A stretch of 64,000 nt of DNA from a virus (Duplodnaviria; Heunggongvirae; Uroviricota; Caudoviricetes), in IMG/VR virus record IMGVR_UViG_3300014205_000176, one strand, 5' to 3'. The number at the start of each line of letters is the position of its first letter. The first letter of the stretch is position 1. Below are positions 6,075 through 63,565 of this stretch, in pieces. The notes under the pieces are model-generated. The model was not told where the DNA came from, did not search any database, and saw only the letters and a list, made by a program, of their open reading frames with translations. The translations under genes were made by a program, and so were the position numbers.

Positions 6075-6549
6075 GACTTCATTACAGGCTCATGAAGGAT
6101 GGATCCCTAAGGATAGTTGCAAGGATCGTTTCCTCTACCGCATTAATTCGCGCAACCTATTCTTAGGTGTCTTCCGCGCGGCAACTGGTGGCTTCATTGG
6201 TTTGCGCACGAAGTTCGGCAGCGTGTATGCCTTCGAGGAATACCACTGGGACAATGAAGCTTTCGCAACGGTCAAGCCAGAAGAGCAACTGGAAGAGTTG
6301 CCGGCGGAGATTGTTTTGGATACAGGTCTAGGTTCGAGGTGTCATAACTGTCACAAGACCTGTGCGTACATCGATTTCCTTGATGGTCCTCGTGAGAAAG
6401 ACTATGGCGGCGAACGCAAAGTCTCGATACGTGGAGAGTGGAAGCATACCGAGCCAAGTGATTGCACTGAGGTTCTAGCTTACGGAGAACCAAATGCTCC
6501 GCTAGAAAAATGGCTACACGAAATGGAGGCTAAGTATGTCAGCGATTGA
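6067..6549 (+). CDS. hypothetical protein
   Basis: 160-aa ORF. Confidence 0.4.
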   Translation: MAKTSLQAHEGWIPKDSCKDRFLYRINSRNLFLGVFRAATGGFIGLRTKFGSVYAFEEYHWDNEAFATVKPEEQLEELPAEIVLDTGLGSRCHNCHKTCAYIDFLDGPREKDYGGERKVSIRGEWKHTEPSDCTEVLAYGEPNAPLEKWLHEMEAKYVSD

Positions 6550-6793
6550 TTATAAGAATCTGTTGTCTCCTATCGTGTATGGAAAGATCCGTTTCGTAGA
6601 GGACGATGGGGGCCGAGCTGCAGCCGGCTTTGAGGGTACGGCTGATGATTGTGCCACTCGTGCGATAGCGATTGTTGCCGAGCTTCCATACAAGGATGTT
6701 CATGCCGCACTAACCGAGTGGCAGGGTTGGGCCGCTGATGCTGGTGGGAATGGTTCTGACCATTTCACTTGCAGAAAGGTAGGATTATTGTAA
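6536..6793 (+). CDS. hypothetical protein
   Basis: 85-aa ORF. Confidence 0.3.
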   Translation: MSAIDYKNLLSPIVYGKIRFVEDDGGRAAAGFEGTADDCATRAIAIVAELPYKDVHAALTEWQGWAADAGGNGSDHFTCRKVGLL

Positions 6794-6902
6794 GGGTGTC
6801 TCATCATTTTGCGGCAGTCATTGATGGAGTCCTACACGACACCCACGACTGCTCTCGCTATGGCAAGCGCTGCGTATACGGATACTTCAAGAAGGAATCT
6901 AT

Positions 6903-7742
6903 ATGACCATAACTCGCTACAGCTTTTTCAATGTGCGATGTCTACCGAACTGTTCAGACAAGAACCTTTGCTTCACCGAACATGCACCACCAAAAAAGGA
7001 ATGCGACCATCCAATCTGTTGTTGCACGAGCAATGTTTCGATTCGTCCGACTGGGGAGCCATCATCGGTAACCCAGCACATTGAATTCGTACCGCTGCAG
7101 TTGGGGAAGTTTCGTCCAGAGTTTGGTCTGGATAATGGATGGCTTATCTTTCGTTGGGACATGACTCCTGAGGATATTGAGAAGTGTATCTATGATGATG
7201 ATAATCGCGATCCTCATGCGTACTTCATGTTCCATCCCGCTCAGCGCAGCGTAAAGATTCAGGTGATGGTTCCTGGGTATGGATTGACAGATTACTTCTT
7301 TGCCGATCTGTATATGGGTAACCAGATTGACGTCAGCAAGTTCATCAATGGGCACTCCGCGTCCGAGATGGTAAACCTCTCTGGTACAGCTCACAAGTTA
7401 TCACTATCTCCGATTACAAGCGAAGACCTCTGGCTGCACAAATGCAACTGGGGAGTGGAGGCGATGCGAGTCTTTGGAGATAGCGAAGAGGCGCGGGCCT
7501 GGAGAGATGCAATCATCCGAATGGAACGCCTTCATCAGCTGATGTCGAAGTACAGATCAAAAGAAACTTTCAGTTGGCCAATTGAAGATATTCGAGAGGA
7601 TGTCAGAGCCAACTTGGAGATCTTTGAAATCGCTAGTCGCGTCGCCAATTATTGCGAACAAGTAGTCTTTGAGTTGCAAACCACGCATCTGTTTCGGCTA
7701 CAACAGGAACTAGATCTGGTACTTAAGGACGCCCATGTTTGA
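6903..7742 (+). CDS. hypothetical protein
   Basis: 279-aa ORF. Confidence 0.4.
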   Translation: MTITRYSFFNVRCLPNCSDKNLCFTEHAPPKKECDHPICCCTSNVSIRPTGEPSSVTQHIEFVPLQLGKFRPEFGLDNGWLIFRWDMTPEDIEKCIYDDDNRDPHAYFMFHPAQRSVKIQVMVPGYGLTDYFFADLYMGNQIDVSKFINGHSASEMVNLSGTAHKLSLSPITSEDLWLHKCNWGVEAMRVFGDSEEARAWRDAIIRMERLHQLMSKYRSKETFSWPIEDIREDVRANLEIFEIASRVANYCEQVVFELQTTHLFRLQQELDLVLKDAHV

Positions 7743-8136
7743 TGCTCCTTATGAGGCTATATTCCTTCTTCCGGAACCTCTCTGCAAATCCTGTGGCGCG
7801 AAGATACCTCCATCAGATTCGGGAGCAGACTCATCCGCCTGCCCGCAATGTGGTGAGATCTTCCATTGGTCTCTGAGGGAGAAGGTTGCCACTGCGGCGA
7901 TCATGGCATACGTTTCTGCGGAGGTGGTTAAGGAAGAAGCCGCCCGTATTCTTCGCGAGTTCAAAGCTCGGCGCTGGTGCAAGAGGCACGGTTTCCAGAG
8001 AGTGTTGCCACTAGAACATCCACCGGGAAGGACACTTGAATACTGTGTCCATTGCATTGCTGTGGCGATGGCTCATCCACCGACAAAAAGTTCACCAGAT
8101 GATTGTCCTGGAGTATTCCTTCCGAGGAACCAATGA
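7735..8136 (+). CDS. hypothetical zinc-ribbon protein
   Basis: 'CKSCGAKIP...CPQCGE' plus 'CVHC' motifs. Confidence 0.4.
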   Translation: MFDAPYEAIFLLPEPLCKSCGAKIPPSDSGADSSACPQCGEIFHWSLREKVATAAIMAYVSAEVVKEEAARILREFKARRWCKRHGFQRVLPLEHPPGRTLEYCVHCIAVAMAHPPTKSSPDDCPGVFLPRNQ

Positions 8137-8504
8137 GTATTGCGGACAAGCTCATAGCGATGTTCGAGGAGCGCCAGTTAGAACAGATCCAGAACTCATG
8201 GTGTCTAGCTGACAAGGCGGCACGCAAGCATCGTCTGAAGACTCTCATCGCCTTGGTGTTGGAGCTTGAGGAGATCAAGAAGGTCAGCATCTTCTCGACT
8301 GCCTTTGGAGAGATGGCTATCGAGGCTGTCATCCAGGGAGATTGGCGCGAGCTGGAAGAGGTGGTGGGGTACCAGACGTTCAAGGCTGAGCACCCTGATA
8401 TACAAGCCGAGTTCGCACCACTATGGGAGAAGTTCCGGGCGATTGCGGAGACGGCGATTGCAGAAGAGCGGCGCAGGGACGGGAAAGCAAGCGAGGCTCA
8501 CTAA
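8103..8504 (+). CDS. hypothetical protein
   Basis: 133-aa ORF. Confidence 0.4.
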   Translation: MSWSIPSEEPMSIADKLIAMFEERQLEQIQNSWCLADKAARKHRLKTLIALVLELEEIKKVSIFSTAFGEMAIEAVIQGDWRELEEVVGYQTFKAEHPDIQAEFAPLWEKFRAIAETAIAEERRRDGKASEAH

Positions 8505-9166
8505 TGTATCGAGTACTTCCAGTTGAAGATTTTCCTAGCTACAAGGCATTCCCCGGAGCTAATCCTCCTGCTTGGTTAGTGGTAACTCCATACATTCCAG
8601 AGAAGGAGCCGAAGGAACTGGCCTACAAGCTGCGCGGCACAACAACAAGAGAACAATGGTACACCGTAGTCTCGTCGCACCCTACCAAAGGCTCTGCTGA
8701 TAAAGCTTACAGAAAACTGATGTCACAAGGCAGGGCTCATGGATTCAAAGAGATGGTTGGTGAGGTAGATGATAAGCCCTACCATCTTGCAATGACCGAG
8801 AGGCAGGCACAGGTATTGGTGAATGCTCTTGACTTGTACTCTCGAATTGGTATGGGGCAATTGACAGAGGTTACACACATCTTACGTATGACTGTTGTTG
8901 GTAACCCAAGCGGCACAGTAGATGCTCTTGACGCTGTTGAGAGATTGACTCGGGAGGCTGCTTCTCTTTGGATGGGTGGTTCCGGAGGCTACTATGGAAT
9001 TACTAGCGATAAGATCAGTGACGTGTTCAGAGTGGCATGGGATCTTCAGCAAGTAATCCGGTATCGCTTGGCCTGGGATCGAAAGCCCGAGGGTGGGATT
9101 CAGGTTCACTTCGATAATCCAATGAAGACTTCTGCTGAGGAGCTTGCGCTTATAAAGAAGGTTTGA
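8504..9166 (+). CDS. hypothetical protein
   Basis: Start placed at the ATG overlapping the upstream stop (TAATG); 220 aa. Confidence 0.4.
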   Translation: MYRVLPVEDFPSYKAFPGANPPAWLVVTPYIPEKEPKELAYKLRGTTTREQWYTVVSSHPTKGSADKAYRKLMSQGRAHGFKEMVGEVDDKPYHLAMTERQAQVLVNALDLYSRIGMGQLTEVTHILRMTVVGNPSGTVDALDAVERLTREAASLWMGGSGGYYGITSDKISDVFRVAWDLQQVIRYRLAWDRKPEGGIQVHFDNPMKTSAEELALIKKV

Positions 9167-9167
9167 T

Positions 9168-9725
9168 TTGATTATGGATGATATGCATCTGCCTTGTGCT
9201 GTTTGTGGAAAACCTGAGCCATGCGATGAGTGGGCGTGCCGTGTTGAAATGAATCGGCGCAAGGGTTGCCCCGAGTATACGCCGAACAACTTGCCCATTC
9301 GTTGCATCCGTGCAGATGGGATGATGCTGGAGCACGAGCACGGCGATCATCCTGACTACATCTTCCCAGTGGAGGTTGAGTATGTAGGCCCAAAAGATGA
9401 GCGGCGCTATCAGTTGGTTGATAGAGAAGGCAATGTAGAGATGATGGACGAGGGATGGAAATACTCCATTGATCATGAGGAACATGCACTTCTTTATACG
9501 AATGGAAGCATTGCAGTTACCATCTATGAAACATGTAGCTCAATGTGGTCGTTACTATCATATCCGAAGTTCAAAGATAGTAAGCGTATTGAGGATAAAC
9601 CGGCAGGATTGTGTATGGGAGGTAGTCTTTGGCTAAAGGATGAGTGGAAACTTACTGACGAATCCTTGAAGAAGATTGCTAGATATTTCAAAACAAAATT
9701 AGAGAATGGTTATGAAGAGAAGTGA
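9168..9725 (+). CDS. hypothetical protein
   Basis: 185-aa ORF with N-terminal Cys cluster. Confidence 0.4.
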   Translation: MIMDDMHLPCAVCGKPEPCDEWACRVEMNRRKGCPEYTPNNLPIRCIRADGMMLEHEHGDHPDYIFPVEVEYVGPKDERRYQLVDREGNVEMMDEGWKYSIDHEEHALLYTNGSIAVTIYETCSSMWSLLSYPKFKDSKRIEDKPAGLCMGGSLWLKDEWKLTDESLKKIARYFKTKLENGYEEK

Positions 9726-9926
9726 AGCGAAGGAGATGATCGTCGCTTATATTACTGATGTTCAGGGATGTAAAGCCACTGAGCTTGCGGCGGCTTGGGC
9801 GGCATCATACAACGGTGAACATGGACTATCGAGAGAAAAGCTTCTATCTTCCTGGTAACACACAGGTTATTATAGACGCAGAACAAAAGGTTGTAGCGCC
9901 AGAAGTGAAAGCCGGAGCTAAGTAAC

Positions 9927-11145: not shown

Positions 11146-11400
11146 ATGCCAGGACCAGTATCAGATTCTTATCACCCAGAGTTTTCAACCGGCGAGCGTG
11201 CCACCAGAGTGCGTGAAGCAATCATGAAGGTACGTGATAGGTTGACATCAATCCTCGGAGATAGGTTATTGAACATCGTTGATGTTGTTGATGGTAACTT
11301 CAAAAGCGCAAGGTCGAGGAAGTACATGCATCTGAGCTTTACTGAGCAAGAGCTGCGCACAATTCGATTTGCCCTAAACAGAACTATAGATTCTATATAG
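11146..11400 (+). CDS. hypothetical protein
   Basis: 84-aa ORF with a purine-rich stretch upstream. Confidence 0.35.
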   Translation: MPGPVSDSYHPEFSTGERATRVREAIMKVRDRLTSILGDRLLNIVDVVDGNFKSARSRKYMHLSFTEQELRTIRFALNRTIDSI

Positions 11401-12018
11401 CTCGGCGAACTTCATCAACCGATCCAAACGCGAAGCCACACGATTTCCACCAACATGTTGCTTCATATTGAAAGCTATCGCATCTTGTCTTGCCTTTGGC
11501 GATAAGTACATTCCATGAAGCTTCTCTTGCTGATTCAGATCAGAGTATTGAGGTATCGGAAAGAACTGTGCTGGGTCTTGTATCTGCCCATTCTTCCATA
11601 CTTGGAAATGACAATGCGGCCATGTCTTCTGTGCATTGCCGGTGTTGCCAACTGTACCTAGAACGGTATTGGAATCCACCTTCTGCCCCTTCTGAACGTT
11701 CGCGGTGGCCAGATGGGCGTAGTAGGTCTTGACTCCATCGGCGTGCTCAACGTTGACCACGTTGCCACCAAGCGGGTCTGTTCCAACGTTGGTGACAACA
11801 CCAGGTGAAATGGGGTACAATGGGGTGCCTATCGGAGCCCTTAAGTCCACACCCTGATGCTTCCCGCCAAAGCCACCAGAGTTCTGCCAAATTCCCTTGA
11901 TCGGCGCTTGGAATGACTGCAGAATTGGGGCTGGTGGATTGGCCTTAGGCTTGGGCAATTCGAAGTTGAACAGATCTAAATCTTCATTCTTTGGTAAAGA
12001 AACCACAAATACATTCAA
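11374..12018 (-). CDS. M23 family peptidase (lysostaphin-like, LytM domain)
   Basis: 'HQGVDLRAPIGTPLYPISPGVV' and 'YAHL...GTVGNTGN...HCHFQV' M23 metal-binding motifs. Confidence 0.75.
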   Translation of the reverse strand: MNVFVVSLPKNEDLDLFNFELPKPKANPPAPILQSFQAPIKGIWQNSGGFGGKHQGVDLRAPIGTPLYPISPGVVTNVGTDPLGGNVVNVEHADGVKTYYAHLATANVQKGQKVDSNTVLGTVGNTGNAQKTWPHCHFQVWKNGQIQDPAQFFPIPQYSDLNQQEKLHGMYLSPKARQDAIAFNMKQHVGGNRVASRLDRLMKFAELYRIYSSV

Positions 12019-13942: not shown

Positions 13943-14737
13943 ATGCCATACGGAACTCTCAATGCCGCCCAAGAAGAATGCTTGAAGAAGTTGGTGGCCG
14001 GTAAGGTTGTCTACGATCTTGGAGCTGGAGATTTGGTATTGGCGCACAAGCTCCTTGAACTGGGCGCTGCTAAAGTCGTTGCGATTGAGAAGGAACTCTT
14101 CTTTATTGACAACGTAGCCCCCGAGATTGAGGTTAGGCAACAATACTTCCAGCATATGGATGAGGACATGGACATCGCATTCGTAAGCTGGCCCGCAAAT
14201 TACGACAATGGATTGCGGGAAATTCTGAAGCGAACAAAAACAATAATCTATCTTGGTAAAAATACAGACGGATCAATGTGTGGAACTCCAGCTCTCTTCG
14301 AATACTTATCCACAAGGAAGATAGAAGAGCACGTTCCGTCCCGAGCAAACACTTTCATCTGCTACACCGATACCTTGGACAAGCCAAGGCACACCGCATG
14401 GCTACTGCAGGAAGAGGAAGCGGCCATCAATGCCAATGTTCACGCCGAGCCGGTTCGATACAAGAACCCCAGGTGCCAGCATATAGATGGTTGCCGCGAG
14501 GAGAGTTGGGACCATCCAGAAAAAGGTATGCTGTGCCTTTGTCAGGAGCACGCCGAGCTGGTCTTTGCTGGCATTGAGAAGGCCCCACCGCTGCGTAGGA
14601 ATAGGGACTATCAAGCAGTGGGTAGGAAGACCTTCTTGATTGATGGGGATGGTCCAATCGCCAGTACGGATTTCAGCAGCATTCCAATAGAAGAATCTTT
14701 GAAAATCTTAGAAGGCTTCGCAACCATACTTAAATGA
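13943..14737 (+). CDS. putative class I SAM-dependent methyltransferase-like protein with Cys-rich C-terminus
   Basis: Gly-rich Rossmann motif 'VVYDLGAGDLVLA'; start moved to the internal ATG after the upstream stop. Confidence 0.35.
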   Translation: MPYGTLNAAQEECLKKLVAGKVVYDLGAGDLVLAHKLLELGAAKVVAIEKELFFIDNVAPEIEVRQQYFQHMDEDMDIAFVSWPANYDNGLREILKRTKTIIYLGKNTDGSMCGTPALFEYLSTRKIEEHVPSRANTFICYTDTLDKPRHTAWLLQEEEAAINANVHAEPVRYKNPRCQHIDGCREESWDHPEKGMLCLCQEHAELVFAGIEKAPPLRRNRDYQAVGRKTFLIDGDGPIASTDFSSIPIEESLKILEGFATILK

Positions 14738-15114
14738 GAATCCTTTTCCTAGACGATAACCCGGCTCGCCATGACATAATGGATGCTCAATATCCATTGG
14801 ACGAGATCATCCACGTCTACGATATCGATACGTACCGAGATGCGCTGGAGAAGTACGACCACTTCGACATGATCAGCTTGGACCATGACCTGAATGATTT
14901 CGAACACCGCAGCTACATGGGTGATAGCGATCTGACGGGTAGGGATGCTTGTGGCTACCTGATGAAGTACTTACATAAGGCTCCAGCAGTAATCCACATT
15001 CATTCCTCTAACGAAGAGGGGGCTCGGGACATGGCTGAATTCCTGGATAGCCGCGGTGTAAAGAACAGATGGAAGATGTTTCCCGTGGAATTTGTAGAGG
15101 AATCAGAGACCTAG
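14734..15114 (+). CDS. stand-alone receiver (CheY-like REC) domain protein
   Basis: 'MRILFLDDN', 'FDMISLDHDL', 'AVIHIHSSNEEGA' match the REC acidic pocket and phospho-acceptor layout. Confidence 0.45.
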   Translation: MRILFLDDNPARHDIMDAQYPLDEIIHVYDIDTYRDALEKYDHFDMISLDHDLNDFEHRSYMGDSDLTGRDACGYLMKYLHKAPAVIHIHSSNEEGARDMAEFLDSRGVKNRWKMFPVEFVEESET

Positions 15115-15264
15115 CGCATATTCTATTATGAGGATATGGGCCTACCTACTCTTGAAAAGACATGGCAATATAACGTAAACCAGTATATAGCTCCAGGGGC
15201 TGATGTTACTGCAGATCGCCGGAACTTGTGGTTTCTAATAAAGCAATCACTAACTGGGTTCGCG

Positions 15265-15717
15265 TCAAACCCATAAATCCGAGACCCAGACGTCCACATC
15301 ATCAGCTTGGGTTACAATCAGGCGGCGCGAGAACTCATCGTTGTGCCAGAGCAATCCATTGAACAGCTTGTGCTGAACTGGTTTGACGAAGTGAGATTGG
15401 ACTAGAGTTCGAACTTCCCCAAGCTTTGTGCAGCGTAGCGAACGCCCAAGGAACTCTCTCAATTCTTCTGGGTAGTCTCGGTTCTTTGGGATGGGTTTGT
15501 TGAGCTTTGTCAGCGCCCAATGCACGTCCTCGATGTAGCCGGCTAGACCTACTGTTGGGCTGAGGTCAGGGATATTGGGAATCTCTGTAGTGGATTCGTA
15601 TGTATCTGTTTCAACTCCAAGCAACCAAAAGCCGCGGCGAGAATAGTCCAGCACTTCCGTTTCTGGATATCCATCACGGTGTCGTACGTAGAATTTTCGG
15701 GCCTTGAGATCATACAT
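15265..15717 (-). CDS. hypothetical protein
   Basis: 150-aa ORF; start of a minus-strand block. Confidence 0.4.
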   Translation of the reverse strand: MYDLKARKFYVRHRDGYPETEVLDYSRRGFWLLGVETDTYESTTEIPNIPDLSPTVGLAGYIEDVHWALTKLNKPIPKNRDYPEELREFLGRSLRCTKLGEVRTLVQSHFVKPVQHKLFNGLLWHNDEFSRRLIVTQADDVDVWVSDLWV

Positions 15718-15732
15718 TGTTTTACCAAAGAG

Positions 15733-16047
15733 TTATAACATGTCTTTCGGGAAGTCTGGCATCGGCACGGTCTGTCCTGCAAATTGATGTTTCGAATCTG
15801 CGCAGAACTCAATCTTACCTGCGTGAATGAAGTAGTGGCAAGAGCCAACGTGATTGATGGACGGATTGAAGGTTGGGGCTTCTAGGTTGCCATCGAACGT
15901 CCAGATTGCGCCGAGTCTGTTGGGCTTTTCGGTGTTGATGAGGTGCATCTGCTCGCAGCCTGGACACCAGTGTAGGTAGCACAGCCCGAAGCATTCCGTC
16001 CAGGATTCGTGGGATTCGGCCAGCACCGGGCTGAGCAGCTTAATCAT
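15733..16047 (-). CDS. hypothetical Cys/His-rich protein
   Basis: 'CYLHWCPGCEQMH...CHYFIH'. Confidence 0.35.
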   Translation of the reverse strand: MIKLLSPVLAESHESWTECFGLCYLHWCPGCEQMHLINTEKPNRLGAIWTFDGNLEAPTFNPSINHVGSCHYFIHAGKIEFCADSKHQFAGQTVPMPDFPKDML

Positions 16048-16708
16048 GGGAAGGAGCCGTTGGGTTCCAGTGGAATTCAGGGGAGCCTACGAGCAGAGCT
16101 TCCGGATCGACCCACTCCATGAGCTTCCTGGTGGTCTGGTAGCTCCAAGTAATATCGCCTGTACCGGTTGCGATTGCGTTCTTGTCACGTCCTCCACCGC
16201 CATGTAGAGCAACGTGCTTATCGTTTGGAGTTTCTAGCAAGAACTCAACGTGGTTGTTGTTAGAGCCTGGCGTGTAGTAATGCATTGAAGCGCCGAGCAC
16301 TGGAGGTCCGTCCTTAGGATAGGTGCGCAGAGCTTTCAAATCGATGGCAATTTGTCTAACCCAAGCGATTGCCATGCCGGTCTTGTACGGACGCTTTAGC
16401 AGTTCGTGTTGAACTCCAGCCAACCACCAAACACCAAGCATAAACATTCCGCAGTTCGTTGTGATCTGTACGACCTGATTCGGATCATCGACTTGGCGAG
16501 CGGTTAGAAGTGCCAAGTCTTCTTTGTTGTGGATTAGCGAATCACCAATGTAGCTCTTTACAATTTCAACAATGTCATTCGGGGTTGCCATACTTGGATA
16601 CGGCAATATGGGTTGGCCGGATGATTGGTCGAAACCAAAAATCTTGCCAAAGCTCGGATGGCTCGGGAAAGCTACACACTCTTCTGACGATTGAAACATT
16701 GACACCAA
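16040..16708 (-). CDS. hypothetical protein (possible cysteine peptidase-like)
   Basis: 222-aa ORF, 'TNCGMFMLGVWW'; no firm family assignment. Confidence 0.35.
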   Translation of the reverse strand: MVSMFQSSEECVAFPSHPSFGKIFGFDQSSGQPILPYPSMATPNDIVEIVKSYIGDSLIHNKEDLALLTARQVDDPNQVVQITTNCGMFMLGVWWLAGVQHELLKRPYKTGMAIAWVRQIAIDLKALRTYPKDGPPVLGASMHYYTPGSNNNHVEFLLETPNDKHVALHGGGGRDKNAIATGTGDITWSYQTTRKLMEWVDPEALLVGSPEFHWNPTAPSHD

Positions 16709-16733
16709 GTTATTTTTACGATACGATATTTAG

Positions 16734-18422
16734 ATGTTGACAAATTCTGCCAAAAGAGTTGCTGACACAATTGTTCACACCCTTATTTCATCTAATATAA
16801 ATCACTTCTTTGGAGTTCCAGGAGGCCCAATCTCTCCCATATTCGATGCCATTCTGGGCAACACCACTGCGACACTCATCGAATCGCGGCAAGAAACAGG
16901 CGCTGCCTTTGCCGCTGGGGGCTACAATCGCATCAGTGGACACGTTCCATGCGTCATGGTCACAGCTGGACCTGGAGCTACCAATGTAGTGACTGGTGTG
17001 ACAGCGGCTTACCTAGAGCATACCCCAATGATCGTGCTGGCTGGAGACGTTTCATGGACGAAGGGGGGCCGGATGCTTCAAGACTCTGGACCGCAGGGCA
17101 TTGATATGGAAGGAATGTTTCGCGGAGTTACCAAAGCTACTATTCGCATTCGACAAGCCAAGTCTGCTGCAGCTCATGTGATGGCTGCGATCCAAATTGC
17201 AACCAATCCTAATAACCCTGGCCCGGTTTTGATTGTTATTGCAATTGAAGTAGCATCTGAATTGGAAGTCACACCAGAAACTCAAATGATGGCATGCTAC
17301 TTGGACTACCGAATCAGTCAGGCAACTGTAGAAATGATTCGAGACAAGATAATCAATGCAGAGCGACCATTGCTAGTATTGGGAGCTGGGTGTCGGCCAT
17401 TTGCGCAATCTTTAGAGACGCTGCTATCTATCTTCAAAGTTCCGTTCGTTACTACGCCGAGAGGTAAAGGAGTTGTCAGCGAGTCCCACTCTTGTTCTTT
17501 GAGGCACGGTGGGCTGGCTGCTTCAATGTGGGCGCGTGAGTATTGTCAAAGGGGTGTTGACTTCGCATTGGTTTTGGGAACTGATCTTGACGATTGTTCT
17601 ATAGGCCCTACCAAGTACATCCGAGAAGGTGGAGAGTTGGTACATGTGGATTTGGATTCCACGGTCTTCAATCGTAACCTACCAACCACACTGGGATTGG
17701 TGACAAATGTTGGTAGTCTTCTCAACCAATTAATTGTGGCTACCTTCGATATGGCTATCAATCTGAAGGATGAGGTGCGAGAGATTAAGTCGCACTCTGC
17801 TTTCGACGTTTGGGATTTTGAGACTCAGCCCAGCGTCATCATCACACCATACAGAGCCATCTTTGATCTTCAAACTGCTTGCCCAGATGCACGTTTCGTT
17901 ACCGATATTGGGGAGCACATGCTTTTTGCACTACACTACCTAACGGCTACGAATCCCCAACAATTCACCATTCATTTAGGATTGGGAAGCATGGGGTCTG
18001 GTATTTGCTCAGCGATTGGAATGGCCATTGCTGATAGGGGAACGGGAGTAATTTGCATATGTGGAGATGGTGGAATGCAAATGAATGGTATGGAGGTGAT
18101 AACCGCAAAGATGCAGCGTCTTCCAATTCTGTTCGCGATATTTAATGACTCCAGATACAATATGGTATATCATGGTTACAAACAAGTCTACGGGAAAGAA
18201 ACACCAGTCGAAACTCCATTGATTGATTTTCGATCATGGGGGCTATCGATGGGGATTGCCTCTGAGCGCATCAATCATTCTGGTGAAATAACACCAAATT
18301 TAATTGGTGCTCTCATGCATGATGGACCGGCAATATTGGACATCAGGATTGACCGAAACTTTCACATTGCTGGCGGTGGAAGAAATGAAGCGCTACAACT
18401 AATGAGTCAACCGGAGAAATAA
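16734..18422 (+). CDS. thiamine-diphosphate-dependent enzyme (acetolactate synthase large subunit-like)
   Basis: N-terminal Pyr domain ('GVPGGPISPIFDAI...VTAGPGATNVVTGV...MIVLAGDV') and ThDP-binding motif 'GDGGMQMNGMEV...N'. Confidence 0.75.
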   Translation: MLTNSAKRVADTIVHTLISSNINHFFGVPGGPISPIFDAILGNTTATLIESRQETGAAFAAGGYNRISGHVPCVMVTAGPGATNVVTGVTAAYLEHTPMIVLAGDVSWTKGGRMLQDSGPQGIDMEGMFRGVTKATIRIRQAKSAAAHVMAAIQIATNPNNPGPVLIVIAIEVASELEVTPETQMMACYLDYRISQATVEMIRDKIINAERPLLVLGAGCRPFAQSLETLLSIFKVPFVTTPRGKGVVSESHSCSLRHGGLAASMWAREYCQRGVDFALVLGTDLDDCSIGPTKYIREGGELVHVDLDSTVFNRNLPTTLGLVTNVGSLLNQLIVATFDMAINLKDEVREIKSHSAFDVWDFETQPSVIITPYRAIFDLQTACPDARFVTDIGEHMLFALHYLTATNPQQFTIHLGLGSMGSGICSAIGMAIADRGTGVICICGDGGMQMNGMEVITAKMQRLPILFAIFNDSRYNMVYHGYKQVYGKETPVETPLIDFRSWGLSMGIASERINHSGEITPNLIGALMHDGPAILDIRIDRNFHIAGGGRNEALQLMSQPEK

Positions 18423-18423
18423 G

Positions 18424-19494
18424 ATGATACAAGCAAAAATCGCAGGTATGGGGCAATGGATTCCGGAAGAAGTTCGCACAAATGATGCGTGGCCATTAGG
18501 TTTCGCCGAGTTATCAAAGGCGTCATCTCAACGAGAACTGATCGATATTGAACAAAAAGCATCTTGTTTAGCTGATGAAATCACTTTACGAAACATGAAT
18601 GCTGAGGCCGGAGATCCTTTTCTTGGGGCTTGTGAACGTCGAATCGCTTCACCCGACATAACTCCCGCCGAGGCTGCAACTCATGCTGCCAGAGCAGCTA
18701 TCAAAGATGCTGGTGTAGACCCAAAAGATATCGATGCGGTACTATCATGGGATGCCGTACCCGAGCTTGTTGGACCATCATCATCTTCGCGTGTGGCTTA
18801 TTTAGTAGGCGCTCATAATGCGTATGGTGTGGGTATTGATGTGGCCTGCGCTTCGTTTATTAGCCAACTTGATTTGGCATCGGCGCTCATCAAAGCTGAA
18901 CATGCTAAGACAATTCTATTGACTCAAACGCACTTTATGACGCGGCCAATCAAGATGATGCATCCTGCATCTCCGACAGTCGGTGATATTGCCACAGCAG
19001 CTGTTGTTACAGCACAAACAGATTTAAGCAAGGGCATTTTACCAATGCATGCACGCAGCTATGGAGAAGCTTATTATGCCGTACTGTGGACTCGTGGCCA
19101 GAAAGTACAAAATACATGGTATCAAAAAGGTGGCGATTTCTATCTGGGAACAGCAGATTTAGATATAGTTCGAGAGTTGGTGCGAACCACCGTGCGTGGT
19201 GCCTCTGAGATGATTCTAGAGACTTTGGCAAAAAGCAATTGTCCTTTGGATGAGGTTAGTGCGCTGATTAGTATTCAACCTCGCAAATGGATTCCAGCGG
19301 CTATAGCTGAAGCGGCTGGGATTAAAGCTCCAGCTCCAACCACATTTGATAGGTTCTGTCACATTGGTGGTTGTGGCCTAGTGGCAAATCTTATTAAGGC
19401 CCGAGAAATGGGATTACTCACACCACAAGCGAAAACTATATTGTTCGGACAAGGAGCTGGATTTATCAAAGCCGCAATGCTAATTTTGTGGTGA
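18424..19494 (+). CDS. 3-oxoacyl-ACP synthase III (FabH)-like / thiolase-fold condensing enzyme
   Basis: 'GIDVACASFISQLDLA' active-site Cys context; 356 aa; 1-nt gap after the ThDP enzyme gene suggests co-translation. Confidence 0.55.
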   Translation: MIQAKIAGMGQWIPEEVRTNDAWPLGFAELSKASSQRELIDIEQKASCLADEITLRNMNAEAGDPFLGACERRIASPDITPAEAATHAARAAIKDAGVDPKDIDAVLSWDAVPELVGPSSSSRVAYLVGAHNAYGVGIDVACASFISQLDLASALIKAEHAKTILLTQTHFMTRPIKMMHPASPTVGDIATAAVVTAQTDLSKGILPMHARSYGEAYYAVLWTRGQKVQNTWYQKGGDFYLGTADLDIVRELVRTTVRGASEMILETLAKSNCPLDEVSALISIQPRKWIPAAIAEAAGIKAPAPTTFDRFCHIGGCGLVANLIKAREMGLLTPQAKTILFGQGAGFIKAAMLILW

Positions 19495-19529
19495 TGACTG
19501 ATTGGCCGGTCAGAATGTTTGATATCCTC

Positions 19530-19826
19530 TTATACCAAAGGAAGTTTTAGTTGATTTCCATTGCTATGTCGTGCTGAACAGGCCATCTTGATTTTCTGGA
19601 TTTCTACGTCTAGTACTTCAGTTCTCTTTTCCAGTGCTTCAATTTTCTTTAACGATGTTTCATAGAGCTTTATAGCCCATGGTGGTGGTTCATTAGAGGC
19701 GAGTTGAGATTCTATACGCTGCATAGCTCCGACAAGATAAGCTAATACATCATCTTGACTAATCATTGGTCCATTTGGGTTCGTTGGCAGTTCTGAATCG
19801 GTCATGATACTTTCTCCTTGTAGCAT
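19530..19826 (-). CDS. hypothetical coiled-coil protein
   Basis: 98-aa ORF convergent with the FabH-like gene. Confidence 0.4.
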   Translation of the reverse strand: MLQGESIMTDSELPTNPNGPMISQDDVLAYLVGAMQRIESQLASNEPPPWAIKLYETSLKKIEALEKRTEVLDVEIQKIKMACSARHSNGNQLKLPLV

Positions 19827-20433
19827 ACGATAATATTATATCGTCTGTAATAATCTAACTAATAAATTTCAATTCTTTCATTGAGAACATAGTAATTAAC
19901 CTCTGGGGACTTTACAATATTGAAATATAACATTTCAAATATGAACTTACCGTACGGCTGACCGATTGACGTGGATGTAGTCCGTTCTACCTCCAAAGAT
20001 CGGATCCTTTCTCAATAAACTTGACTACTAAACGCCAGATAGATAACTTGCTCGGCACATTGGGAAATGCGTTCGGAGACCGAATCCGGGGAGACTGCTT
20101 GCTTAGGGAGCCGGGTAGATGGTCTGAGGAGGCCGGGTGGATTCGACACTGCTAGTGATCAGCAACTTCGATTTGATAAAATTCGGATGTCCTCATTGCG
20201 GGTCTCTGGAGGGTGGAATATTTATCGAGAATGGAACCTGCTCTATTTGGAGTTGTGGGAATTGTGCAAAGGACTGTGCTGTGGTTGGAAAATCTATCGA
20301 AGAGGTTGCACAATTCACTCTTCGGAATACTGACATCAAAGATCTGATTGGAAATCATCCGTACCAAAATGGGGATTGCCAAATCAATTCCTATGCTTTG
20401 CGGATGAATAATCTTCCAATTGGTTAATTACTT

Positions 20434-20484
20434 AGGCTCATTGCTAATTGGATGCGGTTCTCGGTTCGAATCCGAGTGGGCCTA
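20434..20484 (+). ncRNA. tRNA-like minihelix (acceptor stem plus T-arm only); candidate Y-RNA-like (YrlA-type) module or tRNA remnant
   Basis: AGGCTCA (20434-40) pairs with TGGGCCT (20477-83); T-arm CTCGG-TTCGAAT-CCGAG (20460-76); discriminator A; no D or anticodon arm between. Confidence 0.3.
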
Positions 20485-20668
20485 CTTCACATGCAGTCTT
20501 AACTTTTCGCCGAAGGAGACAGGCTGCATGTGATTTTTCTATCCTGTGCTGATATTTATTCATTACCAAAAAGTATTGATATAGATATTGTGCGGGTTGA
20601 TTCCCGTTCACTAATAACAAGCCCATAAAACGCTCTGTTGGAGCAGCATGGGTTCGTAGAGGTATATC

Positions 20669-21667
20669 ATGGTACAAAAGAAAATTACAAAGACAACTAG
20701 CAAAGCAAAGAAAACCGCCTCTGATATCGTGGAAGATGTAACCACGGCAGCCCCAGTCGATGAGAAGGCTCGTAAAGTTCGTGCCCAATATAAAGACCAG
20801 GCTGTTGCAGACTCAGCATCGCTAACTGTTGAGAGGGTTACTCAATCACTAACCAAGGCCGGTCTTGATATTACTAAGACCTTACACTCTGTTCGGGAGC
20901 TTTTCGAGTCTGAGATTTCTGCACTTCAGACGATCAAGGAAGCAATCGAGGCAAAGCAAGAGGAATTGGGAGAGCTTTATGACAAGGAAGTTATAGCGGC
21001 TTCTTTGACAGAACTGGTTCTTCAATACGAAGCTCGCAAGGCTGACCTATTGAAGGCCGAGGAAGAGGCTCGCAAGGCATGGTCCAAAGAGCAGACTGAT
21101 CACGCGGCAGCTCTCCGAGAACGCACCGAGCAGGTGTCTAAGGAGCGCACTCGTGAACAAGAAGAGTTCGAATACGCCAAGGGTATTGCTCGCCGAAATG
21201 CAGAAGATGCGTGGAAGGCGGAACATTCAAAGCGTGTTCTGGAATTGAAGCAGGTAGAAGAAGCCCATCAAAAGAATTGGAGTGAGCGAGAGCAGGTTAT
21301 CCAGAAGACGGAAGCTGAAATTGCTGCATCCAAATCTAAGCTCGATAATTTCGACGCCACTGTCAAAGCAGATGTTGATAAGCAAGTTGCAATTATCGGG
21401 AATGCAATGAAGTCCAAGTACGAAACCGAAGCCAGAATTAAATCTCTGGAATTCGATGGCGAAAAGAAACTCCTTGAGAGAGACAATGCAACGCTCAAAG
21501 AATTGCTTGGAATCAAAGAGATGGAAATGGCTCAGCTGCGAGCTGCTCTAGAGAAGAAGGATTCCGAGGTAAAGGAAGTCGCAGTAGCGGCGCTGAATTC
21601 GCAGTCCGGCAAGCAAGCATTGGCTGCCGTGCAAGAAATGAATCAGAACCAAGGCGGCAAAAAGTAA
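20669..21667 (+). CDS. coiled-coil protein (Glu/Lys/Ala-rich)
   Basis: 332-aa ORF with a strong terminator downstream. Confidence 0.5.
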   Translation: MVQKKITKTTSKAKKTASDIVEDVTTAAPVDEKARKVRAQYKDQAVADSASLTVERVTQSLTKAGLDITKTLHSVRELFESEISALQTIKEAIEAKQEELGELYDKEVIAASLTELVLQYEARKADLLKAEEEARKAWSKEQTDHAAALRERTEQVSKERTREQEEFEYAKGIARRNAEDAWKAEHSKRVLELKQVEEAHQKNWSEREQVIQKTEAEIAASKSKLDNFDATVKADVDKQVAIIGNAMKSKYETEARIKSLEFDGEKKLLERDNATLKELLGIKEMEMAQLRAALEKKDSEVKEVAVAALNSQSGKQALAAVQEMNQNQGGKK

Positions 21668-26042: not shown

Positions 26043-26334
26043 AGAATACATCTCGTGTGATGAACAGCTTCGGCGCTGGGTTGATGGAGAATCTGTTCAT
26101 AGACTCATCTCTAGCGATGAAGATAGCGAATGCTGCCCAGACTTCTCTTGTTGTAAACCGGAATTTCTGCAGCCAGTTGAGGTGAGACAGGCCTTCGCAG
26201 CCGCTGATGATGAGAAGCGCCACGAGTTTCTGATGACGTTCCTTGGAGCGGCTATTCAGTGTGCAGCGCAAGAGGGACATAAAAAGGATTTGGAAGTGTA
26301 TCTGGCGGGCAAAGACCCCACGAAGGAAGTTTGA
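26008..26334 (+). CDS. hypothetical Cys-rich protein
   Basis: 108-aa ORF, 'CCPDFSCC'. Confidence 0.35.
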   Translation: MIRTIPLSKVIREYISCDEQLRRWVDGESVHRLISSDEDSECCPDFSCCKPEFLQPVEVRQAFAAADDEKRHEFLMTFLGAAIQCAAQEGHKKDLEVYLAGKDPTKEV

Positions 26335-26335
26335 T

Positions 26336-27295
26336 ATGAGCACAGCAGCTGACGAAATCAAGGGCAAATACTTCAGGATCCTAGACCATGGCTTCATCTC
26401 CCTAGTTGATTACATGGGAGATGATTCTTCTATTGTTCAAGCCGCCCGTGTTAGTTACGGCGCAGGTACTAAGAACACAGGTACAGACCGCGGGCTCCTT
26501 CGTTACATGCTGAAGCACGGCCACACCTCTCCCTTCGAGCAGGTCATCCTCAAGTTCCATGTGAAGCTTCCTGTGTTCGTGGCCCGGCAATTGATCCGTC
26601 ACCGCACCGCCAGCATCAACGAGTACTCTATGAGATACTCTCTTCCCGTGATGCAGTTCTACATGCCGAATGCCAACGACATGGGAACCCAGTCCAAGAA
26701 GAATAAACAGGGTAGAGCTGAACCAGTATCAGCTGAGCAAGCGGCTCTTATCCAAAACAAATGGAAGGAGATGCAGGTCTCCGCCATTGAATTCTACGAG
26801 TATCTAACCTCTCAAGAAGTAGATATGGCGCGGGAGATTGCTCGCATTGGGTTGCCGCTCTCCATATATACTGAGTGGTATTGGACCATTGATCTCCACA
26901 ACCTATTGCACTTCATGGGTCTGCGTAGCGATAGCCATGCACAGTGGGAGATTCAACAGTTCAGCAATGTTAAAGCCGCAATGGTGAAGCGCGTAACTCC
27001 AGCAGCCTATGAAGCTTGGATTGATTACAAGTTCCAAGGCTACAAGTTCAGCCGTATGGAGATGATTGTATTGCTAGAATCATTGGCGGGAATCACCACA
27101 GCCAACAATATCCAAGAGCGTTGTGTGAATCTTGGAATGACTACAAGAGAAATTTCAGAGTTCACAGAGGTTATAAAAGCAACCTCTCTGGAACGTTTCG
27201 AGAAACCCATTGACTTCGATCTTAATCCGGCAGATGGATTGTCTGGAGAGGTATTGTTGGCCGAGGCCCAGCGGTTTATTCCCAGGAGTTTGTGA
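26336..27295 (+). CDS. thyX: flavin-dependent thymidylate synthase ThyX
   Basis: ThyX signature 'RHRTASINEYSMRYS' (RHRx7-8S) and N-terminal 'LDHGFISLVDYMGDD'; start moved to the ATG after the upstream stop. Confidence 0.8.
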   Translation: MSTAADEIKGKYFRILDHGFISLVDYMGDDSSIVQAARVSYGAGTKNTGTDRGLLRYMLKHGHTSPFEQVILKFHVKLPVFVARQLIRHRTASINEYSMRYSLPVMQFYMPNANDMGTQSKKNKQGRAEPVSAEQAALIQNKWKEMQVSAIEFYEYLTSQEVDMAREIARIGLPLSIYTEWYWTIDLHNLLHFMGLRSDSHAQWEIQQFSNVKAAMVKRVTPAAYEAWIDYKFQGYKFSRMEMIVLLESLAGITTANNIQERCVNLGMTTREISEFTEVIKATSLERFEKPIDFDLNPADGLSGEVLLAEAQRFIPRSL

Positions 27296-39493: not shown

Positions 39494-40689
39494 ATTTAAA
39501 TCCCTTCCGACAAGTGAAGGGGTCGAAACAGCTGGGCTTTCCAAGGCTGGCGTCGTTCACCTGAAATTTAAATCCCTTCCGACAAGTGAAGGGGTCGAAA
39601 CGCGTACAGGGACGCGTTGAGGCTTGCTGGTCTCGGTATTTAAATCCCTTCCGACAAGTGAAGGGGTCGAAACTCTGATGGTACGACATATGAAGCCCCA
39701 CACCAATATTTAAATCCCTTCCGACAAGTGAAGGGGTCGAAACAGCTTCTTCGGTGCCGTCTTGAAATAGAACTCAAGATTTAAATCCCTTCCGACAAGT
39801 GAAGGGGTCGAAACGACTAGACGAACAACTCAAACAACAGCTGGAACGATTTAAATCCCTTCCGACAAGTGAAGGGGTCGAAACGCCAACCCCTTAAGAG
39901 CTTGGCGCAAAGGACTTCGGTATTTAAATCCCTTCCGACAAGTGAAGGGGTCGAAACATGGTGGCCGTGGTCAGTGTTCTCCAACCAGCACCAATTTAAA
40001 TCCCTTCCGACAAGTGAAGGGGTCGAAACTGCATGCTTGGATGCGAGGGTAGGCGTAGGCGCTTAAATTTAAATCCCTTCCGACAAGTGAAGGGGTCGAA
40101 ACGAGACCATGATGTGGCATAGAACGCTTTGTAGACAGGATTTAAATCCCTTCCGACAAGTGAAGGGGTCGAAACCGACCATAGTGGAAAGTCTTTGATG
40201 TTTTTTGCCGAGATTTAAATCCCTTCCGACAAGTGAAGGGGTCGAAACGCCGGTACGAACGCGGCTGCAGAAACGGATCCAGATTCAAGTCCCTTCCAAT
40301 AAGTGAAGGGGTAGAAACAGTTCAGGGTGTTGTCTCAGAATATTGCTAAAGGTGATTTAAGTCCCTTCCAATAAGTGAAGGGGTAGAAACGAGATTGCGT
40401 ATCATCACTGCGTTTATGCGTATGGATTCAAGTCCCTTCTAATAAGTGAAGGGGTAGAAATGATTCTATGCCAGGTCGATACGACAGCGTCGAAGACATT
40501 CAAGTCCCTTCCAATAAGCCTTCCAAGTGAAGGGGTCGAAAACGTCGAATGGTGTACCAATATACTGGAGCCAATATCAAGTCCCTTCCGATAAGTGAAG
40601 GGGTCGAAAAAATGAAGGGTTGAAACGTGATTCAACAGGCGCGCAAAGGAAAGTCTAATCATCCCTTCTAATAGTGAAGGTGTCGAACG
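39494..40689 (+). CRISPR. CRISPR array of about 17 repeats (36 bp) and 16 spacers (34-38 nt)
   Basis: 11 near-identical repeats ATTTAAATCCCTTCCGACAAGTGAAGGGGTCGAAAC (39494-40248; internal 6-bp stem CCCTTC/GAAGGG, 8-nt 3' tag GTCGAAAC). Then 3 copies of a variant repeat ATTCAAGTCCCTTCCAATAAGTGAAGGGGTAGAAAC (40283-40461), one repeat with a 10-nt internal insertion (40498-40543), and 2 further degenerate copies up to about 40689. Confidence 0.95.
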
Positions 40690-40703
40690 AGTGGCCGGTA
40701 TGC

Positions 40704-41192
40704 TTACGAATGTTCGGCCAGCATCTTTTGAAGTTCCTGGTGACGGTTCTTCTTCTGATCCTTGCGCCACTCCTTCTGCTTTTCTTGGTAGGCTTTCACG
40801 CAGGCCGGACAGCGACAGCGGTGCTTCCGATACATCCAGTATGTACCGTGCGTAGGCTTTGGTGTAGAATAGTCCCAAGCTTCTTTCGTCTTCTCTCTAT
40901 GGCAATCCTCGCATAAGATCTGGAGGTTCTTGATTTCACTCTCGAATCTCTTATCATTCACCGAGTGAAGGTCTGATGCGCGCATGGTCTTCTTGGACTT
41001 GTCTTTGTGGTCGAGGTGGAAGTGCCCCTCTTTACTTCCGCAGCGAGTACATCGGCCGCCCAATCGGTCAATCACTTCCTGGCGCTTCTGGTGATATCGA
41101 TTGGCCATATACTCCCTCATGTAGTCTGCACGGGGATGATTAGCCGCCTCAGAATACAACTGGGCATACTTCAAAAGACATTCAAAGTCCAT
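40704..41192 (-). CDS. HNH endonuclease
   Basis: 'GGRCTRCG...HLDHKDKS...N...LCEDCHREKT' HNH motif with zinc ligands; minus strand immediately after the array trailer. Confidence 0.7.
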   Translation of the reverse strand: MDFECLLKYAQLYSEAANHPRADYMREYMANRYHQKRQEVIDRLGGRCTRCGSKEGHFHLDHKDKSKKTMRASDLHSVNDKRFESEIKNLQILCEDCHREKTKEAWDYSTPKPTHGTYWMYRKHRCRCPACVKAYQEKQKEWRKDQKKNRHQELQKMLAEHS

Positions 41193-63084: not shown

Positions 63085-63565
63085 CAGCTTTATGCCTCGC
63101 GTCCGGTAAAATGGATTCACTTTTGTGAAGCTTACACGCCGTGGTTCGACTCCACAAAGCGCCACGATCCTTTGACACTACTCCCCCGTAATCAAAGGAT
63201 AAGTGATCAGGGCCTTGAACAGTTCTGGTTGCACTAAAGCTATCAACATACCGTGCTTACACGCTCATAACGTACGTCCGGACAGAGTTCCGGACAACCC
63301 AAAAGCACTGTTACTCGATAGCTTAAATTCTTGGGGTTATATCGAGGTTTGGTACCTCAACTGACAGTTAATCAGAATATAATTTCGCATTAGCACTCGC
63401 GTCCTTCAGAAGATGCATAAGTTAAAGCGTACAAGCTCGTGGTTCGATTCCACGTAACCCCGCCAACGCAGTCAAATTCGAGATGCATACACGCAATTAT
63501 GCCAAATGGTTAGGCATTTCTCTTGAAAAGAAAAAATAGTAGGTTCAATTCCTGCATTTGCAACA
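63085..63565 (+). ncRNA. cluster of tRNA-like T-arm/acceptor motifs (candidate tRNA genes or Y-RNA-like modules)
   Basis: No ORF over 70 aa over about 730 nt. T-arm-like units GTGG-TTCGACT-CCAC (63141-55), CGTGG-TTCGATT-CCACG followed by TAACCCC-G-CCA (63438-65) with complementary GGGGTTA at 63333-39, and GTAGG-TTCAATT-CCTGC (63543-59); the repeated word CTCGCGTCC occurs twice. Confidence 0.3.

Follow-up and report, generated by a model that had tools for sequence, protein, structure and literature searches.

This report concerns a pair of adjacent genes in a 64,000-nucleotide stretch of the virus record IMGVR_UViG_3300014205_000176 (Caudoviricetes; the whole stretch is referred to below as the window). 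They lie within a group of six open reading frames (ORFs) at positions 15265-19826 and encode a thiamine diphosphate (ThDP)-dependent carboligase, here called T, and an enzyme with the fold of beta-ketoacyl-acyl carrier protein (ACP) synthase III (KAS-III), here called K. We show that T and K form one translationally coupled operon, and argue that they are very probably a synthase pair that came from Polyangia and is specialised for a small molecule, rather than a part of primary metabolism. A first-pass annotation, made from the sequence alone, had described a co-translated pair of 562 and 356 amino acids at this place, and all six ORFs were found at the coordinates and on the strands that it had assigned. 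The features of the operon are the following.

16734-18422, plus strand: ThDP-dependent carboligase (T), 562 amino acids
18424-19494, plus strand: non-canonical thiolase-superfamily enzyme of the KAS-III fold (K), 356 amino acids
18413-18426, plus strand: translational-coupling junction, with GGAG, TAA, 1 nt and ATG read directly
16699-16727, plus strand: putative promoter of the sigma-70 type (TTGACA-17 nt-TACGAT), proposed from its consensus match alone

The Shine-Dalgarno sequence of K (GGAG, 18413-18416) lies inside the 3' end of T and is followed by the TAA stop codon of T (18420-18422) and, after a gap of 1 nt, by the ATG of K at 18424. Both are real genes and not chance ORFs, and the pair is under purifying selection, with a dN/dS of 0.057 for T against the 85%-identical relative on contig L076 and a pN/pS of 0.26 for K against contig L078, where synonymous sites are saturated. 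The candidate promoter matches the consensus at 10 of 12 positions, is the top site of a scan of 14600-20700 and ends 6 nt before the start codon of T, although the count of such sites in the scanned region is not above shuffled expectation. Because of this short distance, and because no Shine-Dalgarno sequence is visible upstream of the T start, the T transcript may be leaderless.

T carries the TPP_enzyme_N, TPP_enzyme_M and TPP_enzyme_C domains (Pfam; E about 1e-30, 1e-22 and 1e-30), and its best NCBIfam match is TIGR00118, biosynthetic acetolactate synthase (ALS), with 287 bits against a cutoff of 538; it falls short by far of the cutoff for all 25 models listed (NCBIfam, PRK equivalogs). 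In a motif alignment anchored on E. coli IlvI, the ThDP/Mg motif GDGGMQMNGMEVITAKMQRLPILFAIFND aligns with GDG...NN of IlvI and satisfies the pattern GDG-X24-27-N(N/D), and the catalytic Glu is kept (RQET versus RHEQ in IlvI); these two features are common to the whole superfamily of ThDP decarboxylases and carboligases and do not discriminate within it. The acceptor-pocket Trp of acetohydroxyacid synthase (AHAS), in the motif M-V-[KR]-Q-W (MVKQWQ in IlvI), is replaced in T by Gly (MVYHGY), QW becoming HG. All homologs from phages and Polyangia share this His-Gly pocket, as do the ThDP partners of the outgroup described below and the solved structures of BbmA (G484) and CsmA. These last two proteins are also the best PDB matches of T (E 1e-67, 230 bits, and 1e-65, 222 bits), ahead of all ALS structures (1e-53, 183 bits), and they take the top places for a Polyangiaceae homolog and the outgroup partners as well. 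In E. coli, ilvH stands downstream of ilvI, whereas in the window T is followed by K and not by an ilvH/ilvN-type regulatory gene, and no ACT-domain small subunit occurs among the window's Pfam hits. Since its scores are below the ALS cutoffs, the pocket Trp is missing and there is no regulatory subunit, T is, as judged from sequence, an ALS-like fold but not a housekeeping AHAS.

K matches ACP_syn_III and ACP_syn_III_C (Pfam), again well under the NCBIfam cutoffs (PRK09352, 104 bits versus 249; TIGR00747, 90 versus 292). The AlphaFold2 model is confident (pLDDT 89.8, pTM 0.91) and places K in the thiolase/KAS-III fold; the top Foldseek matches are FabH, PqsD, OleA, CorB and BioZ, at TM-scores of 0.74-0.81 and about 22% identity. 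Active-site positions were read from an alignment anchored on an E. coli FabH sequence, in which the catalytic triad fell at the expected numbers (C112, H244, N274). The nucleophile is kept as Cys142, together with the oxyanion-loop glycines of FabH. At the position of His244 stands Ile, part of a conserved motif S-[IV]-Q-P-R-x-W (Ile or Val across the family), and Asn274 is replaced by His313; all 16 family members compared have this His, and a conserved Cys317 follows it. This layout of Cys, no His and then His holds across the whole core K family, which also has an N-terminal insertion of its own at about residues 20-65. Because the His/Asn pair is absent, K by its predicted active site cannot perform canonical malonyl-ACP decarboxylative condensation. 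Formation of an acyl-enzyme on Cys142 is plausible, and K is predicted to be the acyl-transferring or cyclising partner of T. The earlier superfamily calls, an ALS-like ThDP enzyme and a FabH-fold enzyme, are thus borne out by the Pfam domains and the K fold model, at the level of fold.

The family to which K belongs is small, with 44 members at E <= 1e-30 among 1.84 billion representatives. GTDB species representatives (one genome per species) contain 64 loci, and every locus that has a lineage-level label comes from Polyangia/Myxococcota (Polyangiaceae, Sorangium, Sandaracinaceae, Polyangiales); among named genomes the family is confined to Polyangia, with phages as the only addition. Wherever the 5' side of a locus is complete, T directly precedes K, overlapping it by ATGA or separated from it by 1-3 nt; this tight spacing was seen in 60 homologous loci and holds for essentially all bacterial and viral ones, which suggests that the two proteins form a complex. 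Two further genes accompany the pair. Targeted tblastn located an orthologous hybrid histidine kinase gene and a DUF2378 gene beside it in about 50 of the 64 loci (kinase in about 54, DUF2378 in about 51). The kinase is soluble (HisKA-HATPase-REC, 42-90% identity, no transmembrane segment). With D for DUF2378 and H for the hybrid kinase, the commonest order is D-T-K-H, in 21 loci; in 14 loci T-K is accompanied by H and D in convergent orientation, in 8 T-K-H has D on the other strand, in 4 H diverges from D-T-K and in 2 the order is T-K-D-H. T-K is intact in all of these at least five arrangements. The module is found in the uncultured Polyangia loci L005-L069 and L075 (for example L005:10001-15156 and L010:5362-10651). 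Linkage that persists through rearrangement argues strongly for a joint function of the four genes. Genes for tailoring, resistance or export are not conserved with the Polyangia module, and a literature search returned no description of it, the papers that mention DUF2378 being concerned with other matters. Some metagenome-assembled genomes hold two copies of the module (L023 and L037; L062 and L065).

The nearest outgroup of K (P0203, P0244) is 27-30% identical to the window protein, has the same signature of Cys, no His and His, and likewise follows a ThDP gene that overlaps it. The outgroup T-K pairs at L072:9101-13375 and L073:8855-12058 adjoin a gene for a large AAA_16 (STAND-type) ATPase, which suggests that this clade has a different regulatory partner. 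An unlinked Enhygromyxa KAS-like paralog in L071:4184-7981 also stands beside an AAA_16 ATPase gene.

The pair in the window belongs to a set of viral relatives. Phage K proteins (the window K, P0002 and P0003) and phage T proteins (the window T, P0051-P0056, P0088 and P0090) were each monophyletic in 60 of 60 bootstrap replicates. The phage K clade was nested in 49 of 60 replicates within a Polyangiaceae subgroup with the T-K-H/D- arrangement, its nearest neighbours being the lower-GC loci L006 and L075 (GC 0.59), while the T tree did not resolve sister from nested placement of the phage clade (35/60). Related huge phages retain the pair with 64-85% identity, and five additional phage-like contigs, whose flanks differ, contain the pair or T alone. 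A second viral lineage, contig L070 (IMG/VR UViG_3300017933_000003, GC 0.38), which is rich in homing endonucleases and looks unrelated, has a deeply divergent coupled T-K pair at 6304-9874 (42% and 37% identity). In L070 the pair is followed by a gene of the alkaline-phosphatase-superfamily 'Metalloenzyme' family, with overlapping stop and start, and by an AAA_28 kinase-like gene. GenBank phages contain no close homolog, only ALS and FabH genes of about 28% identity in host-contaminated records, and phage-clade KAS-like clusters number only three among 5.8 billion proteins; the description of the pair as unusual for a phage is well founded.

The first-pass annotation had regarded the pair as likely a moron, a recent add-on, and had named phylogenetic placement and a local GC and codon-usage comparison as checks. 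The placement is the one given above, and the comparison put both genes inside the window's own distribution. The GC content is 0.469 in T and 0.462 in K, the window mean being 0.470, and the z values of the pair for GC, for GC at third codon positions and for codon usage lie within ±1.6; the Polyangia loci, with a median GC of 0.67, are far away in composition. The pair is fully ameliorated in composition and, being also conserved in relatives, is not a recent acquisition.

That the replicon itself is a huge phage is well supported. The exact ThDP protein sits on a 463-kb contig that carries the NCBI label 'Candidatus Pacearchaeota archaeon', which is probably a binning error, the gene content pointing to a huge bacteriophage. 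The window is rich in PHROG-type genes and encodes functions of phage type (NAD-dependent ligase, RtcB, ThyX, Tpt1, Thg1 and many HNH and GIY-YIG homing endonucleases), and a DUF7873 protein encoded beside the island has homologs in 72 cultured phages, although no capsid or terminase gene lies within the 64 kb. The local gene order around the pair is identical in five independent assemblies (ENA, two from Logan, JGI and NCBI), which excludes a chimera; contamination or chimerism, named beforehand as what would overturn the annotation, was looked for and not found.

For the function of the pair, the biosynthesis of furanolides (cyanobacterin, nostoclide and maculalactone clusters) provides a comparison. 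CybE joins two 2-oxo acids to an alpha-hydroxy-beta-keto acid, and CybF (GenBank BK059219), annotated as a 3-oxoacyl-ACP synthase, O-acylates this product with coumaroyl- or cinnamoyl-coenzyme A (CoA) and forms the furanolide ring in a step of the Morita-Baylis-Hillman type (PMC8777810, PMC12395478, PMC13288894). CsmA and 'BpmA' are CybE homologs (PMC12395478), and we take this BpmA to be the protein listed as BbmA in the PDB. The acyl donors are supplied by cybB and cybC, an aromatic ammonia lyase and a CoA ligase, but Plesiocystis pacifica and Enhygromyxa salina have just the cybE and cybF homologs co-localised, without lyase or ligase (PMC8777810, adjacency in its Table S6). Like CybE and CybF, the window pair consists of a ThDP carboligase gene directly beside a gene for a KAS-III-fold enzyme, and T shares the Gly-for-Trp replacement with BbmA and CsmA, its nearest solved relatives. 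Unlike the furanolide pairs, it has no linked genes for cinnamoyl- or coumaroyl-CoA supply: no kinase, DUF2378, CoA ligase or ammonia lyase was found in the window, AMP-binding and Lyase_aromatic being absent from the Pfam families listed for it (25 listed of 36 matched, from a scan of 59 window ORFs), and neither is conserved in the Polyangia loci. Moreover, the Polyangia and phage family is a separate clade, and linkage to a kinase and DUF2378 is absent from the furanolide clusters. A tblastn search of plasmids with reconstructed BbmA and with P0203 returned no CybE/CybF copy. We suggest that the pair works in the manner of a CybE/CybF-type pair, and claim no membership of that family.

The same logic operates in carbazole (NzsH/NzsJ, CqsB3/CqsB1) and xenocyloin (XclA/XclB/XclC) biosynthesis, where an ALS-like ThDP enzyme produces an acyloin or alpha-hydroxy-beta-keto acid that is acylated by a KAS-III-like enzyme, as we propose for T and K. 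Compared by description, those clusters differ from the present one in having a carbazole synthase, an ACP, a second KAS III and prenyltransferases, none of which is seen here, and in their range, which is Actinomycetota and Xenorhabdus as against Polyangia. The kind of enzyme pairing is therefore already known; the novelty lies in the family itself, in the four-gene setting that it has in bacteria and in its occurrence in huge phages. With the housekeeping enzymes IlvB/G/I and FabH, T and K share the folds, the ThDP/Mg motif, the catalytic Glu, the nucleophilic Cys and the oxyanion-loop glycines, but they differ in their sub-cutoff scores, in lacking the Trp, the regulatory gene and the His244/Asn274 pair, and in genomic context. 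As with CqsA/CqsS and LuxM/LuxN, the Polyangia synthase genes stay adjacent to a hybrid histidine kinase through rearrangements; yet a ThDP enzyme with a thiolase fold differs from pyridoxal phosphate-dependent CqsA or from LuxM, the Polyangia kinase is soluble with no recognised sensor domain, and signalling is here deduced rather than observed.

Taken together, we propose the following sequence of events. A huge-phage lineage would have acquired T-K long ago from Polyangia (Myxococcota). T would join two 2-oxo acids to an alpha-hydroxy-beta-keto acid, an acyloin precursor; K would load an acyl group from an acyl-thioester onto Cys142 and, with His313 as base, transfer it to the acyloin and possibly cyclise it, yielding an acylated acyloin or a butenolide/furanolide-like molecule. 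We lean slightly towards chemistry of this acyl-acyloin/butenolide type, by analogy with the characterised pairs. Because T-K is linked to DUF2378 and the hybrid kinase in Polyangia, the product could be a signal that the four-gene module both makes and senses, a suggestion that we put forward tentatively. An acyloin-type small molecule, possibly a signal, was among the readings offered by the first-pass annotation and is the best-supported account of the pairing. The phage, holding the synthase half, might then make the host signal or an analogue of it during infection, free of host sensing. A complete Polyangia circuit, in which T and K make a butenolide or acyl-acyloin autoinducer, the DUF2378 protein as receptor and the hybrid kinase sense it, and phages counterfeit or broadcast it, is a bolder proposition and rather unlikely in all its parts. 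The substrates of T and K and their class of product are deduced by analogy, and a role in signalling and a benefit to the phage are deduced from the linkage of the genes and from Nostoc, in which furanolides (nostoclides) are cell-density-dependent mediators (PMC9324945). A phage that holds one half of a host communication module would resemble cases of phage interference with quorum sensing. Such precedents reportedly include VqmA of phage VP882 and the agr genes of phage phiCDHM1. Crosstalk between phages and quorum sensing is also described in PMC9112912. For the reading as a whole, a Polyangia-derived acyl-acyloin/butenolide synthase pair whose product is possibly a host signal made by the phage, we consider the chances evenly balanced.

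Several observations weigh against this reading. T is 28% identical to BbmA and CsmA versus 26% to E. coli IlvI, BbmA for its part shares about 35% identity with ordinary ALS enzymes, and the likeness of T to CybE would rest on a 45-bit margin, one pocket motif and the gene pairing, while K is likened to CybF by description and not by sequence. P0205 (Enhygromyxa salina, 374 amino acids) was withdrawn as the published cybF homolog, as on contig PVNK01000231 it has no ThDP neighbour and is an unlinked paralog. Neither in the window nor in the bacterial module is the pair linked to genes that would provide acyl donors (CoA ligase, ammonia lyase, ACP). On the signalling side, the module kinase shows no recognisable ligand-binding domain, and it may stand next to the synthase genes as their regulator and not as a sensor of the product. 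A sensor role for DUF2378, as an H-NOX/V4R-like protein, found no support, with an hhalign probability of 6% against an H-NOX sequence and no relative in a PDB profile search. The host assignment is indirect, with a large gap in GC (0.47 versus 0.59-0.67). Finally, three related phage contigs keep T, which is under strong purifying selection, without K or remnants of it (L074:10001-11713, L076:6001-7695, L077:6001-7695); possession of both genes is therefore no requirement for the phage. Between the window and L076, synteny is lost precisely at the T 3' end, and in L074 an HNH endonuclease gene follows T.

The alternative that survives best is an antibiotic or allelochemical function, with a furanolide or butenolide guarding the niche of the infected cell against competing bacteria, grazers or superinfecting phages, and with the kinase and DUF2378 serving only in regulation. 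The enzyme evidence is the same as for a signal, and the known compounds are bioactive: cyanobacterin inhibits photosystem II, furanolide derivatives are antibacterial and cytotoxic (PMC12395478, PMC9324945), and deoxyenhygrolides are produced by marine myxobacteria (PMC8777810). However, a compact, widespread, vertically inherited-looking module devoid of tailoring, resistance and export genes is more typical of signalling circuits, and the missing cinnamoyl/coumaroyl-CoA supply counts against this function too, so that we hold it to be improbable.

Auxiliary genes of primary metabolism come next, T boosting the flux of branched-chain amino acids and 2-oxo acids and K priming (branched-chain) fatty-acid synthesis, as the first-pass annotation had also envisaged under host rewiring. 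The top NCBIfam names and the JGI annotations do read acetolactate synthase and beta-ketoacyl-ACP synthase III, and the retention of T alone in several related phages fits a self-sufficient metabolic role. Nevertheless, both proteins reach about half of every equivalog cutoff and fail the defining features of AHAS and FabH, the AHAS Trp and an ilvH/ilvN subunit in the case of T and the His/Asn pair for malonyl-ACP decarboxylation in that of K; their family is restricted to Polyangia, where its genomic partners are a kinase and DUF2378 and not ilv or fab genes. We rate this explanation as very improbable. An assembly artefact, with host DNA in a phage contig or a contig that is cellular throughout, has in its favour the archaeal label of the 463-kb contig, the want of capsid and terminase genes in the window and the bacterial affinity of both enzymes' closest homologs, but is hardly credible given the gene order repeated in five assemblies, the match of the pair to the window and not to Polyangia in composition and codon usage, the occurrence of the pair or T in five further phage-like contigs with other flanks, and a window full of PHROG-type and homing-endonuclease genes with a DUF7873 neighbour known from cultured phages.

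A synthase pair of Polyangia origin in a phage would matter for several reasons. Phage auxiliary genes rarely encode the biosynthesis of secondary metabolites or signals, and a two-enzyme synthase kept by selection would widen known viral chemistry. In the four-gene module there is now a testable candidate for chemical signalling in myxobacteria, one that would give DUF2378 its first functional context. The layout of Cys, no His244 and His in the K family makes it a candidate for new thiolase-fold chemistry, related to that of the furanolide synthases of Morita-Baylis-Hillman type. As the phage genes nest within a subgroup of Polyangiaceae, a host can be suggested for the 463-kb phage that was mislabelled as an archaeon. 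If the circuit proposed above were true, this would be a phage-encoded synthase of a small-molecule autoinducer and a first clue to the host of a huge-phage lineage, and the phage could manipulate the social behaviour, development, predation or secondary metabolism of myxobacterial hosts.

The enzyme pair is bracketed by four genes on the opposite strand.

15265-15717, minus strand: truncated remnant of an R2K-clade ATP-grasp protein, 150 amino acids, with no Pfam match of its own
15733-16047, minus strand: DUF6527 protein, common in phages, 104 amino acids (PF20137, E 3.7e-13; phrog_3362, E 1e-21)
16040-16708, minus strand: gene for a 222-amino-acid protein, divergent from T, with a tblastx match at L076 4796-5359
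19530-19826, minus strand: gene for a 98-amino-acid protein, convergent with K, GC 0.40, with no counterpart in L076

These are ordinary phage genes in an indel-prone region and lie outside the cassette. The product of 15265-15717 matches the first 148 of 246 amino acids of L076:2065-2805(-) at 90% identity, and that protein is an intact R2K ATP-grasp enzyme with PF18299/PF14243 at residues 80-231. The DUF6527 gene is also conserved in L076, which has extra genes on both sides and so marks the region as an indel hot spot. The 222-amino-acid protein has no match in Pfam, NCBIfam, PHROG or PADLOC. It was rejected as an equivalent of DUF2378 (hhalign probability 0.1% against the DUF2378 profile), as was the 150-amino-acid protein, and a defence system was rejected since PADLOC gave no match for any of the seven island proteins. 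The 'strand-switched island' of the first-pass annotation does not stand as a unit: T and K are on the plus strand like most of the genome, the inversion is limited to the flanking genes, and these are unrelated phage genes shared with a relative that lacks K. Its 'otherwise plus-strand genome' is an approximation, as the window has further minus-strand genes at 11374-12018, about 40414-41192 and 56996-57532.

A small cREC_REC gene (PF20274, cyclic-phosphate-processing receiver) occurs a few genes upstream of T in three related phage contigs, at 14734-15114 (+) in the window, at L076:362-742 and as a third copy on a 435-kb JGI contig. Elsewhere in the window, genes for RNA repair, tRNA and nucleotide functions are dense (for example 26243-27295, 41868-43775 and 48777-51035), the set including Tpt1/KptA, Thg1, a microbial PARG, the NAD-dependent ligase, ThyX, a ThiF-family protein and a radical SAM protein. 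RtcB is fused to a PhoH-like N-terminal region, and the window further encodes a CRISPR_assoc (PF08798) protein, two AP2-domain endonucleases and a tRNA-Ser(tga) at 63492-63564.

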